From positions 1-64,000 of the IMG/VR virus record IMGVR_UViG_3300014695_000002: a stretch of DNA of 64,000 bases. The stretch is one strand, 5' to 3'. The notes below the pieces were generated by a model, which did not search any database, was not told the origin of the DNA, and saw nothing but the letters and a program-made list of their open reading frames with translations. Shown one piece after another: positions 13,675 to 57,005 of the stretch; the first letter of the stretch is position 1; every line of letters starts with the position of its first letter. Made by a program: the position numbers and the translations under genes. The stretch comes from a virus. Taxonomy: Duplodnaviria > Caudoviricetes.

Positions 13675-15813
13675 TCAATGGATCTCGCTGTAACGTTGGC
13701 CGTATTGAGTTTCACAACCAAGCTTCCTGCGTAGTTTAAACTCTTCGTTCACTTTGTCAATACTGCTACCGATAATTTCTTTAAACTCATCTCTATACTT
13801 CTGTAAGTCCTTGATTACTAAGACATTTTCGTCATGAAACGAGGCAGTAAGGGTCTTACGTCCGTACTTCTCTTGCATAGCATTTAGGATATTGTCAACC
13901 CACATGTCAAAAAAGAAGCTACCTGTACCTTGAGCCAGGGTAGAGAATCGGTCAGACTCTTTACGTAAGGCATAGCAGAATCCATTGATTGGATTTACAA
14001 GCCACTTGTTACCACGATTATCAGTCACCACAACCTGCTCATCTGCGATAGCTTTAACAGCCCAGTTTAGCTTCCAGTATGCTTCGTGCAGTTGCTTACC
14101 TTCAGCTTTTGACACACCTGCCGCAATAGCAATCTTATCAGGACCGGCATTGTACACGGAGGCATAGTTAGTTGTCTTACCTTTCTTACGCGCTGCTTTA
14201 GCATTGGCAGTCTTATTACCTTTCTTGAATTCATCAAACTCTTCCTGAGTAACCATCCCGGCAGTCAGTGCCATCAAAATATGTGGATCAAAGTCATCTT
14301 CCTGCATTGTAGCTACATATTCAGGGTCATGGGGTAGCATGAAGTGGTGCTTTGTACGATCCTCAAGACTACTCAAGTCAGAGCCTACACTTACCTTACC
14401 TTTACCAGCCACAAGAACGCCACGAACAATCTTACCATAAGGCTTATCTACACCTGCAAGGTTTACAATCTCTGCGTGCTGTACTCGAAGGGTATTAGTA
14501 AAGCCTTTAATACGTGCTTGCAACTTACCCTCATACATATCCCGCTTAAAGCCATTTAGAACGCCTAGGCGATGTTTTAGCACACAATACTTAGCATATA
14601 CCTTAATCTCTGGAACCTCTTCAGCTAGCTCCTCTAGCGACGTGCAGAGCTCCTTACCTTCATCACCTTGGATGGTGATTTGGGGAATAGCCCTGTCCTC
14701 GGGTTTGGAGTTCTTCCATGCCGTCCAAGCTTCACGCCTTGCACCTTCTCTTGGCTTCCGGGCAACCCATGCGCTGAAAGCTTCCTCATCCCGTTCATAC
14801 TTGAAGCTTTCGGGCTTCCACCCTTTTGAATACAGAAACGCTTTAATCTGATCTGGGCTATTACCGTTTGGTGGTTCGTATCCTGTCAAGACCTTAACAG
14901 AACCCTCTTTGGTTGAAGGTTTAACCATTGGATTGCCAAACTCATCAACAGCTTTAGATTGAATTAACTTCTTAACTTCCTCCCAAGCTTCACCTGATGC
15001 TGACAGTTCTCCATTCTTTTTGTAAGGCTTAACTGGCTGCTTTCTATCTGCATACTTTGGCACTTGTGGCATGACAGATTCTAGTTCTGCCTTTGCCTTT
15101 TCACCTTCAGCAGTCAGTTGCTTAATTGAAGATTCCAGCAGTTCGGTATCAACATCCCAGCCAGTCTGTTCCTGTAAGCGGGCACAATCCATTTTGAACA
15201 TTAGGAAAGTCAAGATACGATCTACAGCTTTTTCAATAGGTTGTCCAACAAACTGATCAATGTAAATCTTCTCCTTGGCAAACATCCTTTTGCCACCGAC
15301 ATTACCACTGTCAATTTGTTCTTGTGCCAAGGTATAAAGCTCAACAAGCCTTTCTTTCAAGTCTTCCCAAAGAGCTACGTTAATCTTAACGTCCTCGGAG
15401 CATCGATGGGCATACTCTTCATAGGTTAGGTTTTCCCAGTCCTCAACCGGAGGCTTCTCAATACCGTAATCTTCGTGGAACGTACCCAAGCCATGTTTTT
15501 GACGGTTAAAGTTTAGATACCAGCTAATAGCCAAACTGTCAATAATCATAAGCTTAGACAAGTTCATACCCAGAAGCTTCTCAAGCAAGACCACGTCGAA
15601 AGAGATTCCATTATGGATTACAAGGGGAATCTCATTATCTAGGTGATAGTTCAAGAAAGCTTTGATACGGTCATGGTCAGAACCTTCAATGGTTACGTCT
15701 TTTCCGTTGACCATATGACAGCAGACCACATGAATCTTTGTAGCCTCTCGGAGCAGCCCGTCCGATTCTAAATCGGCTACAGTAGCTTTTTGCCAGTTGT
15801 ATATCGCTTTCAT
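13675..15813 (-). CDS. family A DNA polymerase with 3'-5' exonuclease
   Basis: DLESDG (ExoI), HNGISFD, motif A DLSSLEDR, motif B KTTNYASVY, motif C FHDE. Confidence 0.95.
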   Translation of the reverse strand: MKAIYNWQKATVADLESDGLLREATKIHVVCCHMVNGKDVTIEGSDHDRIKAFLNYHLDNEIPLVIHNGISFDVVLLEKLLGMNLSKLMIIDSLAISWYLNFNRQKHGLGTFHEDYGIEKPPVEDWENLTYEEYAHRCSEDVKINVALWEDLKERLVELYTLAQEQIDSGNVGGKRMFAKEKIYIDQFVGQPIEKAVDRILTFLMFKMDCARLQEQTGWDVDTELLESSIKQLTAEGEKAKAELESVMPQVPKYADRKQPVKPYKKNGELSASGEAWEEVKKLIQSKAVDEFGNPMVKPSTKEGSVKVLTGYEPPNGNSPDQIKAFLYSKGWKPESFKYERDEEAFSAWVARKPREGARREAWTAWKNSKPEDRAIPQITIQGDEGKELCTSLEELAEEVPEIKVYAKYCVLKHRLGVLNGFKRDMYEGKLQARIKGFTNTLRVQHAEIVNLAGVDKPYGKIVRGVLVAGKGKVSVGSDLSSLEDRTKHHFMLPHDPEYVATMQEDDFDPHILMALTAGMVTQEEFDEFKKGNKTANAKAARKKGKTTNYASVYNAGPDKIAIAAGVSKAEGKQLHEAYWKLNWAVKAIADEQVVVTDNRGNKWLVNPINGFCYALRKESDRFSTLAQGTGSFFFDMWVDNILNAMQEKYGRKTLTASFHDENVLVIKDLQKYRDEFKEIIGSSIDKVNEEFKLRRKLGCETQYGQRYSEIH

Positions 15814-31462: not shown

Positions 31463-31907
31463 ACTTGCAAATCTCCTTCTGTATTAATATAGGGATAAGA
31501 ATGAAGATGACAATAAATATGGATAAAATATACTGATAACTATCATTTTATGTCATTATTTTGACAACGTAAGTTGGTCAAATAGAGGGCTCTAAATGAG
31601 CCCTTGAGTGGCTGAGAGTATAGTAAACACAATACTTAGAGGTTACTTTATGTCGATTACACTTTTGGTCTGGAATTGAGTCAAAATAACTACAAATGGA
31701 TGATCTCCCTACAACTATCTCTATTTGCTAAGCACGGCAACCTCTCGATAGACAAATTCTATCCACAACTTTCACACAATAGCCTCCCTAAATAACCCCA
31801 ATCAATAGATTTTAGCAACCAAACAACAGATAACAATAGAGATTGTTAATAAATAGGGAATTTATTACAACAGCTCTTTTAATAGAAATCTTTGTGAAAG
31901 AATCTTG

Positions 31908-31936
31908 TTGACGCGGTAGGAGAGAATGGAGATAAT
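31908..31936 (+). promoter_or_regulatory. sigma70-type early promoter
   Basis: TTGACG-N17-GATAAT. Confidence 0.7.
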
Positions 31937-31989
31937 AACTCCATCAAGACGAGACACGCAGTCTAGTCAAACAAGCCAGGAGCTACACC

Positions 31990-42053: not shown

Positions 42054-42394
42054 ATCATGGCTCCTATTTGTGCGGCAGCCTCTACAATAGCTTGCCGAGT
42101 CATTAAGTCTACATTAGCATTGTTCGTATAATGTCGAACAGAGAGAACTTTTGAGTTTGGACCAGAGTTATCTGAAATTATTACAGAAAGCTTTTCACCA
42201 TTCAATCCCGACTTGCTGTGTGCTACACAAAAACTATGATAATTTGCTAATCGAAAGGCAACACCATCATCTTCTAGTGGTCTCCAAACTTCAAGCACAC
42301 CGTCAAAAAAGCTTGGACTATCTTTAAATGCGTCAGGAATTTTGTTTGCTGACAACGCAGCTAGCTCTAAAAGATTACGATAGTCCATCTTCAA
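42050..42394 (-). CDS. hypothetical protein
   Basis: WRPLEDDGVAFRLA..TRQAIVEAAAQIG. Confidence 0.7.
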   Translation of the reverse strand: MKMDYRNLLELAALSANKIPDAFKDSPSFFDGVLEVWRPLEDDGVAFRLANYHSFCVAHSKSGLNGEKLSVIISDNSGPNSKVLSVRHYTNNANVDLMTRQAIVEAAAQIGAMI

Positions 42395-42662
42395 TCTCCT
42401 CCTGTACTCTATAACCTGCTACTACAAAAATAGGCTCAAGTTTGATTACTTTGTAAGCCCCGTCGAGATGTCGGGAAGACTCTGAGCCGCCATCAGCACC
42501 TCTAAACTTACTCATAAATTCGGCAATTCTACCTCGGCTTTCAAATACAAGAACTCGGCTGTCATTCAAAACAGAAGTAGTCAATGCTTGGTTTTCATAA
42601 CCTTTTATGATCAAACGCTCTTTACCCTTCTTTGTCTTGTAGATACAACCGAACTTATTCAT
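42375..42662 (-). CDS. hypothetical protein, paralog of 46719..47126
   Basis: FG.IYK.K.G, LDG.YKVI.LEP shared. Confidence 0.7.
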   Translation of the reverse strand: MNKFGCIYKTKKGKERLIIKGYENQALTTSVLNDSRVLVFESRGRIAEFMSKFRGADGGSESSRHLDGAYKVIKLEPIFVVAGYRVQEEIEDGLS

Positions 42663-46526: not shown

Positions 46527-46762
46527 GATTTCACCTTCACCTCTTCTGGGATTTGCACAGGGATATTACTAAACTCAGCTTCGTATGGCAAGTCTGACCA
46601 GAAAATAAATTCTCTTTTTACTGGATGCCATACAGCACGACCTTGAAAGAAGATTCTTACCTCTGGCTCAGTTTCAGCATCGCGATACCAATATGCTCCA
46701 GGTTCTTTAGGAAATTGGCTAGTCCATTTCATTTCTTTTCTCCCAAGCATCACAATATTCAC
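46517..46762 (-). CDS. WTxxxP..GxY family small protein (copy 1; likely start 46732)
   Basis: MKWTSQFPKEPGAYWY. Confidence 0.7.
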   Translation of the reverse strand: MNIVMLGRKEMKWTSQFPKEPGAYWYRDAETEPEVRIFFQGRAVWHPVKREFIFWSDLPYEAEFSNIPVQIPEEVKVKSCQ

Positions 46763-47126
46763 AACGTTCTTCCCAACGCCCTTCGATACCGACCTGCTCT
46801 ACGAATCCATCACCAAAGCAGTGCCAGCAATCAGTCCATTTAGGTTTATCTTCAATCTTTTCAGGGAATCTCCAGTTAACAATTGAATAAACAGGCTCAA
46901 GCTCAATCACTTTGTATTCACCATCTAGCTCACGTTCTGCTGCCATATATCCTTGTGCAGTCCAATGACTCATGAATTTGTGAGCTTTGTCTTTACTGTA
47001 GAAAGCTAGCACAGATGAATCTGAGCTGTAAAGGTCTGGAATAGCTTCGTTGTAGCGATCTGTTGCGACAACGAGCTCTTGTCCACCTTTTGATTTGTAG
47101 ATTACTCCAAAGCGTCTGGTGCTCAT
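46719..47126 (-). CDS. hypothetical protein with C-terminal zinc finger; paralog of 42375..42662
   Basis: Shared motifs plus CWHCFGDG..CEYC. Confidence 0.7.
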   Translation of the reverse strand: MSTRRFGVIYKSKGGQELVVATDRYNEAIPDLYSSDSSVLAFYSKDKAHKFMSHWTAQGYMAAERELDGEYKVIELEPVYSIVNWRFPEKIEDKPKWTDCWHCFGDGFVEQVGIEGRWEERCEYCDAWEKRNEMD

Positions 47127-47219: not shown

Positions 47220-47402
47220 TCAGAGAGTCTTATAATAGCCTTTAGACTTTAGGAACTCATATGCTTCTGATAAAGCGCTATTCGATCCCTGTGAAAGCAC
47301 CAGTCTTTCAATCACTTCAAAAGCCTGATAAAGCTCTTTGTTATCTTGCATGAGCTTGCGATAGAGGTCAAATGAAATTTCTACCTTCTCTAAATTATTC
47401 AA
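47220..47402 (-). CDS. hypothetical protein
   Basis: GGAGG RBS, first gene after leftward promoter. Confidence 0.6.
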   Translation of the reverse strand: MNNLEKVEISFDLYRKLMQDNKELYQAFEVIERLVLSQGSNSALSEAYEFLKSKGYYKTL

Positions 47403-47433
47403 AGCGCACCTCCTCGTTTGGTTGATAGGACAT

Positions 47434-47461
47434 ACGATACCACAGATTTTCAGTGAGTCAA
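47434..47461 (-). promoter_or_regulatory. leftward sigma70-type promoter
   Basis: TTGACT-N16-TATCGT. Confidence 0.55.
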
Positions 47462-47505
47462 CAGGTGAGTGAAAATATTTTTAGAAAGATTTTTGGCGGA
47501 TGGGC

Positions 47506-47534
47506 TTGACATCACAGCTAGAGCATGAGATACT
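47506..47534 (+). promoter_or_regulatory. rightward sigma70 promoter driving non-coding RNA
   Basis: TTGACA-N17-GATACT. Confidence 0.75.
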
Positions 47535-47540
47535 TCTAAA

Positions 47541-47893
47541 GGTCAGAGAGAATCTGAATCGGCACTGATGGGGTATGCCTCTTGTTATAGGGAGGAGAGA
47601 CTTAGCGTCAGTTGCTTAAACCCCTACTACCGAGGCGATGGGATGGGGCGGGAGAAGCTTGAAGGTCGTTAAACTCCTGTATGGCCGTAGACTTTAGCAC
47701 AAGTAAAGACGATCCATCTGCCGAGGGTGCTACTTCGGGCAGATTACCACACACTCTATTGGTGTGTTCCTATCGAAATTGATAGGCTTGAATTCGGGAC
47801 GCTCAGTATAGTCTTGAAGAGAAGGTATGGGCTTTACTCTGGGGATTCAAGATTAATTTCTTGACCCTGGGGTAGGGCTTTTTATACCTTCTT
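47541..47893 (+). ncRNA. candidate ~350-nt structured ncRNA
   Basis: Begins right after promoter; multiple stems, possible pseudoknots, ends in a ~30-bp hairpin with at least 7 G-U pairs containing a U-tract. Confidence 0.6.
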
Positions 47894-47962
47894 GAAATCG
47901 AACTTTCAGTATAGTATAAAAGATATAAGAATTAATAGATAAATAAACATAGGAGTTAAGAT

Positions 47963-48157
47963 ATGAAATTAGAGATTAGATATGATTCTAATAGAAAGGA
48001 GTGGTTTTGTATGTTACCTGTAGACTATACCTCATGGCAAGCTTCAGGTGAGAGCCCCTTAGAAGCGTTTGAGATTTATCTGATTAAGGTTAATGGTTGT
48101 GCTGAAAAACATGAGATTGATTATAAGTGGTGTAAAGAAAGAGGACTGATCTGGTGA
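47963..48157 (+). CDS. hypothetical protein
   Basis: AGGAG RBS. Confidence 0.6.
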   Translation: MKLEIRYDSNRKEWFCMLPVDYTSWQASGESPLEAFEIYLIKVNGCAEKHEIDYKWCKERGLIW

Positions 48158-53714: not shown

Positions 53715-55940
53715 ATGTTTATTCCTGATAAGTCAAAAGTAAATATTATCGATGCTTCTGGAATGACAGCCGATTGGCCTATTCAGCAGCTTCCTTATAA
53801 AGCTTCAGATGGTACAATTAAAGGTTCTGGTCTTAGGATTCTAACCAGTGGTACAGTGCTCGCTCCTGTAGGCTTTGCTGTAGAATCTGGCTCTGTTGAC
53901 TTTGGTGATGTGCTAAGACTCTCTGAGTCTGCTGGTTTTCTAGCTTTTGAAAACATGGTAGATAAAAGTAAATATCAACTTCTAGATTATGCAGTCCCTC
54001 GTGATGCGGCATCCTCTAAACCATTTTACTTTAAACTTGCCGGACCTGAAGTGAGATTTGAAGCGAATAAATCTTCTGCTTCAGTTATCAAGACTAACCC
54101 CCTTAGCTGGGAATATACCACTAAGCTCACTGCTCGTACCAATGCTCTTATCTTCAATGCAGCAGAGAAGATGAACAATGTTCGTCTACGGATTACTGAT
54201 AAGAAGAGCGGGGTAGCAATCAAGTATTATCCATCTAAGTCGGCTTGGGTAGATGGTTCTGGTGGTACTATTCTTGATGTGGGCGAAAACAACCTAGACT
54301 TCCAAGATACTGCGGTAATTTTCTCTGCCAACACTGATATTATTTTTGATATTCAAGCTGATAATATTGCTTTGGTTGGTGGTACTATCCCTTGGTTTGC
54401 AGGATTGGTTCAGCAGGGAAGTTTTGTTGGCGTAGCGGATGTTTTTGACGTATCTGCATTGCAAGATCAAATCAATAAGCAGAAGGCATCTTTCAACGGT
54501 GATTATAGCGCCCTTACAGGCGTTCCTACGAGCTTTCCGCCTTCTCCCCATACGCATGTAGTGGATGACATTACCGACCTTCCTAGCAAGCTTACAGAGC
54601 TTTCTAGCGCTATATCTCAAAACACTCAAAGCCTGAATGGATTGGCTAAGGTTGCAACGACTGCAAGCTACACTGATCTTGTAAATCAACCCTTTATTCC
54701 AACCGCTACAAGTCAGATTGAGAATAATAGCGGATACATTACGATCCAACATACTCATCCAATAAGTGACGTTGTTGGTTTGCAAGATGCTTTAAACTCT
54801 AAAGCTGGAAGTAATGAGTCTATTCCCGTCTCTCGTGTGACAGGTTTAGCTACAGTTGCGACTAGTGGAAGCTACAATGATCTTAGCAACAAGCCAACTA
54901 TTCCAACCAATGTAAGTCAGCTTGCAAATGATAGTGGTTATATTACTGCTGCTCAAGTGCCTCAGCAGACAGTAACTTGGGCAAGTATTACAGGTAAACC
55001 AGTAACATTTACACCTTCTGCTCACCAGCATCCTATTAGTGATATAACTGGTTTGCAGAACACGCTAAATGCAAAAATAGATGCTTCTACTCAGATTAGC
55101 TACAACAATCTGACAGATAAGCCTAATCTATTTTCTGGCAATTATAACGATCTGATCAATAAGCCAACGTTGTTTTCTGGTAGCTATGCAGACCTTATCA
55201 ATAAACCTGTTTATGCCACTGTAGCAACTACTGGCAGTTATAATGACCTCTTGAACAAACCTGTAATTCCTACAGTTAACTATCCCGTGACTTCTGTTGC
55301 TGGTAAGACTGGTGCTGTGACTTTGGTTGCGGGTGACATTAGTGGTCTAGCTTCTGTAGCAACTACTGGAATGTATTCGAGTCTTTCTGGATTGCCTACT
55401 ATCCCTGCTGCTCAGGTTAACAGTGATTGGAATGCAACAAGTGGTGTTGCTCAGATTCTAAATAAACCAAGCCTTTTCAGTGGTTCTTGGACTGATCTGA
55501 CAAACAAGCCCACTACATTTACTCCGTCTGCGCATCAACACCCCATCAGTGATATTACCAATCTTCAAACAACGCTTGACACTAAAATTACTGCTGCAAG
55601 TTTACCGATAACAAGGCGTGCAGACAATAGCTTAGTGTCTCGCACAAAGGTTAAGTACTACAAAGTCACAAGCGACAGCACAAGCTCTATTTGGACTGTT
55701 AATCTGGGAAGTGATTTCAGCGAGATTCTAGATATTCAAGTTCAGGCAGAGTCAGTTAGTACCCTTCTAGGTGGCATTAGACAGGTAAGTATAAATAGTT
55801 GGACTTCTACCTCAACGACTATAACGGGTATGACTTTTGGTTCAAACACCATCACTACAATTCTTATTGGCGGCTCTCAGGGTCTAGCTTTAGTCCCAGG
55901 AACAGTTGTCCGTTGTCGAGTTGAAGGCGTAGGCGGTTGA
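53715..55940 (+). CDS. long fibre protein with HxH-type (phage tail repeat-like) repeats
   Basis: Repeats PSAHQHPISDI..LQ, HTHPISDV, ATVATSGSY.DL..KP, SQL.NDSGYIT. Confidence 0.8.
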   Translation: MFIPDKSKVNIIDASGMTADWPIQQLPYKASDGTIKGSGLRILTSGTVLAPVGFAVESGSVDFGDVLRLSESAGFLAFENMVDKSKYQLLDYAVPRDAASSKPFYFKLAGPEVRFEANKSSASVIKTNPLSWEYTTKLTARTNALIFNAAEKMNNVRLRITDKKSGVAIKYYPSKSAWVDGSGGTILDVGENNLDFQDTAVIFSANTDIIFDIQADNIALVGGTIPWFAGLVQQGSFVGVADVFDVSALQDQINKQKASFNGDYSALTGVPTSFPPSPHTHVVDDITDLPSKLTELSSAISQNTQSLNGLAKVATTASYTDLVNQPFIPTATSQIENNSGYITIQHTHPISDVVGLQDALNSKAGSNESIPVSRVTGLATVATSGSYNDLSNKPTIPTNVSQLANDSGYITAAQVPQQTVTWASITGKPVTFTPSAHQHPISDITGLQNTLNAKIDASTQISYNNLTDKPNLFSGNYNDLINKPTLFSGSYADLINKPVYATVATTGSYNDLLNKPVIPTVNYPVTSVAGKTGAVTLVAGDISGLASVATTGMYSSLSGLPTIPAAQVNSDWNATSGVAQILNKPSLFSGSWTDLTNKPTTFTPSAHQHPISDITNLQTTLDTKITAASLPITRRADNSLVSRTKVKYYKVTSDSTSSIWTVNLGSDFSEILDIQVQAESVSTLLGGIRQVSINSWTSTSTTITGMTFGSNTITTILIGGSQGLALVPGTVVRCRVEGVGG

Positions 55941-55964
55941 CAAGTACATTTTATCTGCTATAAT
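55937..55964 (+). promoter_or_regulatory. consensus sigma70 promoter
   Basis: TTGACA-N16-TATAAT with TG just upstream of -10. Confidence 0.75.
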
Positions 55965-55969
55965 TGTTT

Positions 55970-56120
55970 ACGCGTGGTCCCGGCGATACGGGACAACCAA
56001 AGACTGCGCAACGGTCTGAAAAACGTGTAACAGGTAAGACTTCTACAGCAAATCACTCTTTTAAGAGGGTTTGTTATGCGTCCCCTGTTGCGACTTAACT
56101 GGGTGATTTGACTATAGAGG
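55970..56120 (+). ncRNA. structured 5' RNA segment upstream of endonuclease
   Basis: GUCCC/GGGAC, AGACUG/CGGUCU, CAAAUCAC/GUGAUUUG stems. Confidence 0.45.
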
Positions 56121-56124
56121 TTTT

Positions 56125-56816
56125 ATGAAACTGCTTTGTGATTTTGGAATCAATGACTTAAATTATTCTGTTTTAGAAAGAGAGATTATTTCGGGAAAGG
56201 TTCAAACAGAAAATATAAGGTCTTATTTGCGTGCCCCTTCTATCAAACGTGGCATGACATGATTCATAGGTGTTATTCTAATAAAATGACATCAAGAAGA
56301 ATGAGGTACTTAGGTTGTTCGGTTAATCTTGCTTGGTCGAGAGCAACAGAATTTAAAAAGTGGATGTTAGAAAATAATTGGAACGAATCCCTTAGACTTG
56401 ATAAAGATATTCTTTTCCCTGGAAATAAAGAGTATGGTCCAGATACTTGTGCATTAGTACCTCACTATGTGAACGCAAGCATTGTTCTGCCAGATAGCTC
56501 GGATTCGTTTTTGCCGTATGGAGTTACTTATCAGAGTGTATATAAAGACGATCCACGTCCTGCGATAAAAAGGTATCAAGTTAGATGTTGTACTGGAGGT
56601 CCTGATAGCTTTAGAAGACATCTAGGAAGTTTTTCTTGTTCGATGGAAGCTCATAAAGTTTGGCAATTAGCAAAGATAGAATCACTTGATAACACTTTAA
56701 GCCATTATTCTAAAGAATCTTGCTACAGAAAAGATGTTGTCGATGCAATAGAGTTCAGAATAGCTATGATACTAAGCGATCTAAACCTAGGTATTGAAAC
56801 TAAAAGTTTTAAATAG
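56125..56816 (+). pseudogene. putative homing endonuclease split by a -1 frameshift (pseudogene or programmed frameshift)
   Basis: Frame 0 MKLLCDFGINDLNY..ISGK stops at 56262; -1 frame GSNRKYKVLFACPFYQTWHDMIHRCYS..LDKDILFPGNKEYGPDTC; in-frame G_GGA_AAG at 56193-56199. Confidence 0.75.
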
Positions 56817-56828
56817 GTAGTTTTTGAG

Positions 56829-56916
56829 AGTCAATTACTTTTCCTGGTTGACTTTCCTCTAGTGCAGCGAGTCTCCTACCCATCGTCGTCATGGGTCTGC
56901 ACAGACGGCACTTTTT
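56829..56916 (+). ncRNA. structured 3' RNA segment with predicted pseudoknot
   Basis: GUGCAG/CUGCAC enclosing ACCCAU/AUGGGU; loop GUCGUC pairs with GACGGC. Confidence 0.45.
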
Positions 56917-56952
56917 CGAATGATATCCTAATAGATTTTATCTGAAAGAGTC

Positions 56953-56982
56953 TTGACAGAAATAGACTGCTCCTATTAGAAT
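56953..56982 (+). promoter_or_regulatory. sigma70-type promoter for glycosyltransferase pair
   Basis: TTGACA-N18-TAGAAT. Confidence 0.6.
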
Positions 56983-57005
56983 ACAAGTTTACATAGGAGA
57001 GAATA

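Follow-up and report, generated by a model that had tools for sequence, protein, structure and literature searches.

Large structured phage RNAs such as GOLLD, ROOL and the ICP1 transcript are among the least understood virological gene products. Structure in phage transcripts can also serve processing: the early transcripts of phage T7, which are made by the host polymerase, carry RNase III processing hairpins between their units. GOLLD and ROOL are found in phages and prophages and form multimers in cryo-EM (bioRxiv 10.1101/2024.12.08.627333), while the most abundant transcript of the Vibrio phage ICP1 is a ~800-nt ncRNA (PMC7567579). For the Pseudomonas phage PAK_P3, early antisense RNAs and 5'-UTR-derived ncRNA candidates have been described (PMC4933390; bioRxiv 10.1101/2023.10.13.562163).

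Here we describe RNA1, a locus of an uncultured lytic phage (G000) represented by an 86-kb IMG/VR record that is rated 99% complete. The window, that is, the whole stretch of DNA analysed, is the first 64 kb of that record. The genome encodes a DNA polymerase, a primase-helicase, a ribonucleotide reductase, several HNH endonucleases, a terminase, a portal protein and a contractile-tail baseplate. Terminase identity to FelixO1/PAK_P3-like Pseudomonas myoviruses does not exceed 50%, so the phage has no close cultured relative. RNA1 is located in a 560-nt ORF-free gap between a leftward gene block that ends at 47402 and a rightward block that begins at 47963 and leads to the structural genes, and the locus coincides with the strand-switch and with the GC-skew minimum. 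To its left, a 135-aa ORF (46719-47126, minus strand) has a 41%-identical paralogue ~4 kb away (42387-42656, minus strand) and a homologue in the relative G002 that is only 50% identical to it; these ORFs constitute a fast-evolving early gene family. Our analysis indicates that RNA1 is, with little doubt, a real structured RNA gene of a new, uncatalogued family.

Promoter, limits and predicted fold of RNA1

The preliminary description of this DNA had claimed a transcript without ORFs that starts just after a TTGACA-17-GATACT promoter. The promoter is present at 47506-47534, with a TG extension besides, and the region contains just three ORFs of 33-45 aa, all of them without Shine-Dalgarno sequences. 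The features of the locus, all on the plus strand, are the following:

47506-47534, plus: sigma-70-type promoter (-35 box TTGACA at 47506-47511, 17-nt spacer, TG-extended -10 box GATACT at 47529-47534)
47543-47557, plus: P1, the 5'-terminal hairpin UCAGA/UCUGA with loop GAGAA (minimum-energy fold)
47558-47620, plus: family signature, made of single-stranded AUC, helix P2 and single-stranded UAAA (47617-47620); found in 6/6 variants
47561-47616, plus: P2, the GCACUGAUG helix, closed by the G47561.U47616 pair
47577-47595, plus: apical hairpin of P2, the 19-mer GCCUCUUGUUAUAGGGAGG, identical in RNA2
47621-47648, plus: P3, hairpin CCCC...GGGG whose loop begins with UACUAC (minimum-energy fold)
47649-47818, plus: central string of six predicted hairpins (minimum-energy fold only)
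47716-47744, plus: AUCUGCC/GGCAGAU hairpin (minimum-energy fold)
47749-47767, plus: ACACAC/GUGUGU hairpin (minimum-energy fold)
47769-47786, plus: CCUAUC/GAUAGG hairpin (minimum-energy fold)
47793-47818, plus: large central hairpin (minimum-energy fold)
47819-47893, plus: terminal hairpin, 32 bp of which 8 are G-U pairs, its 3' arm being rich in U (predicted by folding)
47894-47962, plus: A+T-rich 3' tail and spacer, with the ribosome-binding site of the next ORF and a possible TTGAAA-17-TATAAA promoter
47906, plus: second copy of UCAGUAUAGU, the first being at 47803
47963-48157, plus: ORF64 (64 aa), inside the block that is identical, together with the RNA body, in the relative G001

The promoter belongs to a class, TTGACA-17-NATACT, of which the genome has ~25 copies, mostly in the replication and early blocks (members are found, for example, at window positions 598, 5354, 6307, 7686, 24937, 26448, 29124 and 36256). 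These ~25 sites look like the early promoter set of the phage, meant for the host sigma-70 polymerase, and the RNA1 promoter is probably of this common, early type. Transcription is predicted to start at ~47540-47541 and, with a 3' end predicted likewise, the RNA1 gene would extend from 47541 to about 47895 on the plus strand, a length of ~355 nt. The G+C content of the RNA1 region is 0.495, compared with ~0.39 in the flanks. In the relative G001 the promoter segment is replaced and the RNA body is identical.

Beyond the terminal hairpin, the tail motif AGUAUAAA is found again after the paralogue RNA2 and, as AGUUAUAAA, after the variant V2, both of which are described below. The TATAAA tail motif was also considered as a late promoter and rejected, as a genome-wide pattern is lacking. 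In addition, UCAGUAUAGU forms an exact 10-nt direct repeat (47803-47812 and 47906-47915, with 15/18 matches over a longer span) that flanks the terminal hairpin unit; the repeat might indicate that a palindromic element, the terminal hairpin, was inserted here, or it might be due to chance.

The RNA1 structure is specific to the plus strand. Folding of 47506-47893 gave a z score of -3.8 on the plus strand versus -3.1 on the minus strand, and folding of 47536-47900, compared with its own shuffles, gave -130 kcal/mol and a z score of about -3.9 on the plus strand versus -2.4 on the minus strand. The z score of the RNA1 fold was among the strongest of the 17 intergenic gaps tested in the genome. 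All the stems named in the preliminary description were found in the minimum-energy fold. Its terminal hairpin, which had been claimed to have ~30 bp, to be rich in G-U pairs and to form on the plus strand, was likewise recovered, at -41.7 kcal/mol (z -7.7) on the plus strand versus -22.8 kcal/mol on the minus strand; going by this model, the hairpin is likely a 3'-end protector or a processing site. On the contrary, no support was obtained for the pseudoknot that had been proposed at 47651-47686: the hairpin that would host it does not outperform shuffled sequence (z +0.37), its supposed partner AUGGCC is taken up by another helix in the minimum-energy fold, and the only homologue is identical in this region, so that there is zero sequence variation.

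Since this homologue is identical from 47556 on, P4-P9 and the terminal hairpin of RNA1 rest on energy and on the analogy with RNA2. P1 lies before that point, and in both G001 and G002 it reads CGCU, loop GAGAAA, AGCG, so that every pair is changed yet kept. P1 goes with the site and not with the swapped body. A loop-loop pairing of P3 with other segments was also considered, and it was rejected because it is broken in one relative.

Other stretches of the genome deserve mention. The one at 55937-57005 of the window contains a promoter (TTGACA-16-TATAAT, 12/12 matches), a ~290-nt leader, a 185-aa endonuclease-like ORF (56259-56816) and a ~190-nt trailer that folds well on the plus strand (z -3.2). 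It does not carry the UC / G.U / UAAA module of the RNA1 family and is therefore probably a different, free-standing homing-gene unit. At 31463-31962 of the window lies a 500-nt ORF-free gap of the early region, with promoter-like sites on both strands, a plus-strand z score of -3.1 and a G+C content of 0.34, which could be another RNA or a control region. The gap at 69763-70012 was rejected as an RNA gene: its minus-strand fold is strong, but it apparently holds the start of a small plus-strand ORF.

The paralogue RNA2 and the shared module

A search of the phage's own genome located a paralogue, RNA2, through 24 matching nt on the minus strand (74536-74559). With the variants of the relatives, the family comprises six bodies:

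G000:C1:74224-74607, minus: RNA2, in a gap without ORFs that separates the baseplate hub gene from the spike gene
V1: RNA1, at site 1 of G000 and G001
V2: at site 1 of G002
V3: RNA2, at site 2 of G000, G001 and G002
V4: at site 2 of the viral contig L019
V5: at site 2 of the contigs L020, L023 and L025
V6: at site 2 of L024; partial, as the contig ends before the 3' part

RNA2 has its own promoter (TTGACA-17-TACAAT, minus strand) and, in G000, no ORF of at least 20 aa. It is antisense to both of its neighbours, has no same-strand ORF downstream and points into the hub gene; V4 is also antisense to both neighbours and without a same-strand downstream ORF. The hub and spike genes of cultured relatives overlap, which identifies site 2 as an insertion. 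RNA2 can be aligned with RNA1 over its full length at roughly 55-60% identity, the 19-mer hairpin excepted: GCCUCUUGUUAUAGGGAGG is the sole long exact block common to both RNAs, and it is missing from V2, V4, V5 and V6. Between RNA1 and RNA2, 7/10 pairs of P2 covary, and the counterpart of P3 in RNA2 is GGUC...GACC, a compensated stem whose loop begins with UACCAC.

The homologues of RNA2 in G001 (87 kb) and G002 (90 kb) have 84% and 91% identity. Throughout the three phages, 99.1% of the 112 predicted pairs are paired, and 16 pairs are changed on both sides, compared with 0-1 in slid controls in which the partners were shifted by 1-3 columns. Compensated pairs are present in the region that matches the central string of RNA1, and the terminal hairpin (helices 15 and 16) has 7 pairs with both sides changed. 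Moreover, a small hairpin of RNA2 exchanges its loop among the phages (UUCG / UUCU / GUAA), and loop swapping of this kind is a habit of structural RNAs. These comparisons show the predicted RNA2 structure to be under purifying selection, and the covariation deduced from them is the main evidence for the family as a selected structured RNA.

Members of the family are about 355-470 nt long, are present in exactly two copies in each of three complete genomes and were seen in about five phage lineages only. Our working definition of the family consists of a sigma-70 promoter, a 5' hairpin, UC, a G.U-closed helix, UAAA, a further hairpin and a long terminal hairpin, and RNA1 has every one of these elements. 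The 5' hairpin, the UC, the long helix with an invariant G.U as its first pair, the single-stranded UAAA and the further hairpin were found in 6/6 bodies. The three pairs adjoining the G.U are also paired in 6/6 variants, with 2, 5 and 4 pair types, and a long imperfect terminal hairpin ends 5/5 complete variants (V6 is cut before its 3' end). The promoter and P1 follow the site; everything past AAUCG follows the body.

MAFFT gave no alignment of the six variants, and the module was anchored by script on UCG and UUAAA. A covariance model whose training was limited to V1 and V3 returned V5 as its best non-training match (E 0.02-0.06). In an unfiltered run of a second covariance model over 25.6 kb, the top match was V2 (16.8 bits, E 0.06), followed by V6 (E 1.4), each of them where expected; V4 was missed by the covariance models R1 and R2. 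The family models, which carry little information, had no match in four cultured relatives, PAK_P3, vB_PseuGesM_254, vB_PsaM_M1 and phiPMW. A protein-anchored search with the spike protein yielded 3 viral and 6 metagenome loci, and the same search with the 143-aa left-flank protein yielded none. When IMG/VR was scanned for exact occurrences of the 19-mer and of the conserved left flank, just the two known relatives were recovered, and a blastn search of the RNA1 region against 50,697 phage records matched nothing. An 18-mer scan of 185,579 species genomes gave one match, in Pseudoduganella, which is fewer than the chance expectation and was disregarded.

An Rfam search had been proposed in the preliminary description, and in the 64-kb window it gave no match at gathering thresholds, the scope of Rfam 15 including GOLLD, ROOL, HEARO, 6S, group I/II introns, c4 antisense RNA, phage pRNA, tmRNA and RNase P. 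Under permissive settings, the best matches in 47300-48100 had E values of 2.2-5.3 and corresponded to eukaryotic miRNA/lncRNA models and, on the opposite strand, to 23 nt of the speF leader.

Individual candidates were rejected as well. A group I intron interrupts a gene and has a U.G pair in P1 at the 5' splice site; RNA1 is intergenic with its own promoter, its P1 is all Watson-Crick in both alleles, and the Intron_gpI model had no match. For a retron msr/msd or a DGR template RNA, no reverse transcriptase is present in the 86-kb genome: RVT_1 (PF00078) was absent from the six-frame translation of the whole genome, and the control genomes matched. A type III toxin-antitoxin RNA (ToxI-like) has tandem ~30-40 nt direct repeats upstream of a toxin gene; here the repeats are scattered, 10-18 nt long and limited to two copies, a tandem array is absent, and the downstream ORFs are unrelated to one another. 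Regarding trans-antisense RNAs of the P1 c4 / P4 CI type, complements of RNA1 elsewhere in the genome reach 13 nt at most, a length seen three times and approximately as expected by chance, with none of at least 14 nt outside the locus, and the Rfam c4 model had no match. A tRNA- or tmRNA-like RNA was discarded because ARAGORN found zero tRNA/tmRNA genes in the window, and a CsrA sponge because the six GGA motifs of RNA1 are about chance.

The term 'functional phage RNA' used in the preliminary description is well borne out by these results, since the first three helices are compensated, the covariation of RNA2 is strong and the module is common to six diverged variants.

Cassette exchange and possible function

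Just left of the promoter, G000 and G001 have ~88-90% identity, which falls to 38% over the promoter and P1. The two are 100% identical from 47556 to about 48150, and divergence resumes after this block. A 100% identical block inside flanks of at most 90% identity points to a recently exchanged cassette. Judged by these alignments, the comparison shows that the RNA body and the small ORF were exchanged horizontally as a cassette, with the P1/AAUCG junction as its left border. The V1 body is also found at 97-99% identity, with a break near 47556, in contigs of several unrelated public metagenomes, and one public contig begins at 47556. The public runs in which the locus is present are plant, silage, fermentation and insect metagenomes. 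These contigs are probably DNA; one labelled 'RNA-Seq' also spans the promoter.

Between the same borders, G002 carries V2 and an unrelated 73-aa ORF. In one phage, the V5 body of site 2 has a frameshifted HNH_3 remnant behind it; V3 and V4 have no ORF after the body. As V5 precedes two different ORFs, the RNA is the constant part and the ORF is optional. In L025 (272-571, minus strand) a 99-aa ORF with an N-terminal signal peptide comes after V5, replacing the HNH remnant; it seems to be a moron-like accessory gene of this hot spot. ORF64 and its neighbours matched no family of Pfam, PHROG or PADLOC, and the structure prediction of ORF64 was poor (pLDDT 57) and unusable. As for target-site duplications at the cassette borders, the candidates (AAAUC or UAAUC at site 2 and UCAGUAUAGU around the terminal hairpin) are too short to be distinguished from chance. 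The paralogue, the cassette behavior and the linkage to small downstream ORFs are all absent from the preliminary description.

The copies without an ORF keep the fold, which argues for a function in the RNA itself rather than for a gene-specific leader. A strong promoter, a near-terminal 5' hairpin and a 32-bp 3' hairpin are traits that a stable, abundant RNA would have. Furthermore, the invariant UC, G.U and UAAA placed before fast-changing bodies suggest a common protein or processing contact combined with an exchangeable or diversifying specificity. Accessory hot spots with recent horizontal sweeps are typical of arms-race loci. Taken together, the hot-spot placement, the invariant junction, the swapped bodies and the stable-RNA traits lead us to favor a trans-acting early RNA for counter-defence or host takeover. 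The decoy or anti-defence role put forward in the preliminary description is possible and is the reading that we prefer, and we propose its trans-acting, protein-binding mechanism (decoy or counter-defence) tentatively, as one that may well turn out to be wrong.

According to this mechanism, the host RNA polymerase would make RNA1 early in infection, and the 5' hairpin, 2-3 nt from the predicted start, and the 32-bp 3' hairpin would protect the ends of the RNA. RNase III may also cut the 3' hairpin, which would split RNA1 from the message of the downstream ORF. The RNA would act in trans, binding a protein via the conserved module, and the variable body would track a fast-changing target, e.g., a host defence or takeover factor. 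The role as an RNase III substrate, which had also been suggested beforehand, is plausible for the terminal hairpin: such a substrate needs a nearly uninterrupted RNA duplex of at least ~20 bp and has to be cleaved by the enzyme, and the 32-bp helix is present.

A more speculative form of the trans-acting reading, to which we give rather little credence, sees the RNAs as 'cartridges', in which two docking sites (promoter plus 5' hairpin ending UC^G) would take alternative bodies, each neutralising a different host defence or rival phage. In a form that is bolder even than this, the UC / G.U / UAAA junction would be an RNA/DNA cleavage-joining site, the reaction being done or guided by the RNA itself.

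The foremost rival of the trans-acting RNA is a cis-acting leader, that is, a long 5' UTR that would serve to stabilise, insulate or regulate the downstream accessory ORFs, with no role of its own. The 3' end of RNA1 has no clear intrinsic terminator: the terminal hairpin is not followed by a terminator-like U-run, and 70 nt past it begins an ORF whose ribosome-binding site is good, so RNA1 could be just the 5' part of an mRNA. In the same sense, ORFs with a ribosome-binding site lie within ~60-70 nt on the same strand after RNA1, V2 and V5, and the RNA1 body and ORF64 travel as one 100% identical block. However, RNA2 and V4 have no downstream ORF, yet the fold of RNA2 is kept through 16 both-side changes; the V5 body precedes two unrelated ORFs, and no known riboswitch or leader model matches. 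We consider it unlikely that the family is explained in this way.

The exchange of bodies can also be read as the work of a selfish mobile cassette, with the RNA as a part or remnant of a homing-endonuclease-type element and its structure serving the expression of the endonuclease or its mobility. The bodies are swapped at fixed borders at both sites, the 100% identical block lies within diverged flanks, an HNH_3 remnant comes after V5 and the genome is rich in HNH genes. Likewise, site 2 was inserted between two genes whose counterparts in relatives overlap, and there are short direct repeats at the borders, but these are short enough to occur by chance, and neither inverted terminal repeats nor a recombinase was seen. 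An endonuclease is missing from most copies, the only one found is frameshifted, and the structure is kept without it; we therefore regard this explanation as improbable.

The position of RNA2, which lies in the late operon and is directed into the hub gene, raises the question of an antisense or interference regulator, mainly for RNA2, whose early transcription against or into late genes would time their expression. At the same hub/spike junction PAK_P3 has an antisense RNA defined by RNA-seq, and it has been proposed that early antisense RNAs silence structural genes (PMC4933390). Nevertheless, the PAK_P3 junction has no consensus promoter, RNA1 is sense to everything downstream and lacks complementarity of 14 nt or more to its own genome outside the locus, and interference requires no conserved fold, all of which makes this regulator a highly doubtful explanation of the family.

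Finally, a replication-origin transcript, i.e., a structured pre-primer RNA at the divergence point of the replication and structural genes, like ColE1 RNA II or the T4 origin R-loops, would fit the strand-switch and GC-skew minimum, the strong promoter and the A+T-rich stretch just downstream (47895-47960), but this role, listed in the preliminary description as a replication primer, is very improbable given that the same family is also found inside the baseplate operon, close relatives have different bodies at one site, iterons are absent from the region, a primase-helicase gene is present in the phage and the change in gene orientation explains the skew switch.

Unlike GOLLD, ROOL and the ICP1 transcript, the RNA1 family offers two copies per genome, a short and sharply defined module, and bodies traded at fixed borders that sometimes carry small ORFs or a homing endonuclease along; its allelic cassettes are natural swap experiments. 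This pattern resembles that of protein anti-defence and accessory hot spots, which makes the family a concrete candidate for RNA-based counter-defence or host takeover. The cartridge reading, if true, would provide the RNA counterpart of anti-defence protein islands. If RNA1 were merely an mRNA leader or the remnant of a mobile element, the family would still be a clean case of structured-RNA evolution by module exchange.

Comparison with known systems

The family shares with HEARO and the IscB omega RNA the placement, in one relative, of a structured RNA directly before an HNH ORF. However, the Rfam HEARO model had no match, the ORF is a small HNH_3 homing-type remnant and not IscB, and most copies of the family have no nuclease at all. 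As in phage T7, a long imperfect hairpin between transcript units could mark a cut and protect the 3' end, but this likeness accounts for the terminal hairpin only and not for the ~280 nt of conserved structure upstream of it.

PAK_P3 is a distant relative of the phage studied here (TerL about 44% identical), and its antisense RNA as07 (L018, record positions 15399-15700, minus strand) spans exactly the hub/spike junction that is the site of RNA2. In contrast with RNA2, there is no intergenic gap and no consensus promoter at that place, and the family model had no match in PAK_P3; the PAK_P3 RNAs are located within genes and have no demonstrated fold.

The ICP1 transcript is similar in that a large RNA comes from an ORF-less gap of a lytic phage without tRNA genes (PMC7567579). 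The ICP1 RNA is known by its expression, whereas RNA1 is known by its predicted structure, from sequence alone, and the two are thus compared by description. With GOLLD and ROOL the family has in common that they are large, intricately folded, phage-borne ncRNAs with no obligatory adjacent protein gene (bioRxiv 10.1101/2024.12.08.627333). It differs from them in its length (~355-470 nt versus ~580-800 nt) and in that the Rfam models had no match, RNA1 has no tRNA genes nearby, and the family has two copies per genome with bodies swapped behind a fixed 5' module. The RNA1 family belongs to none of GOLLD, ROOL, the ICP1 transcript or the PAK_P3 RNAs, and what is new in it is the two-site arrangement, the defined shared module and the exchange of bodies.
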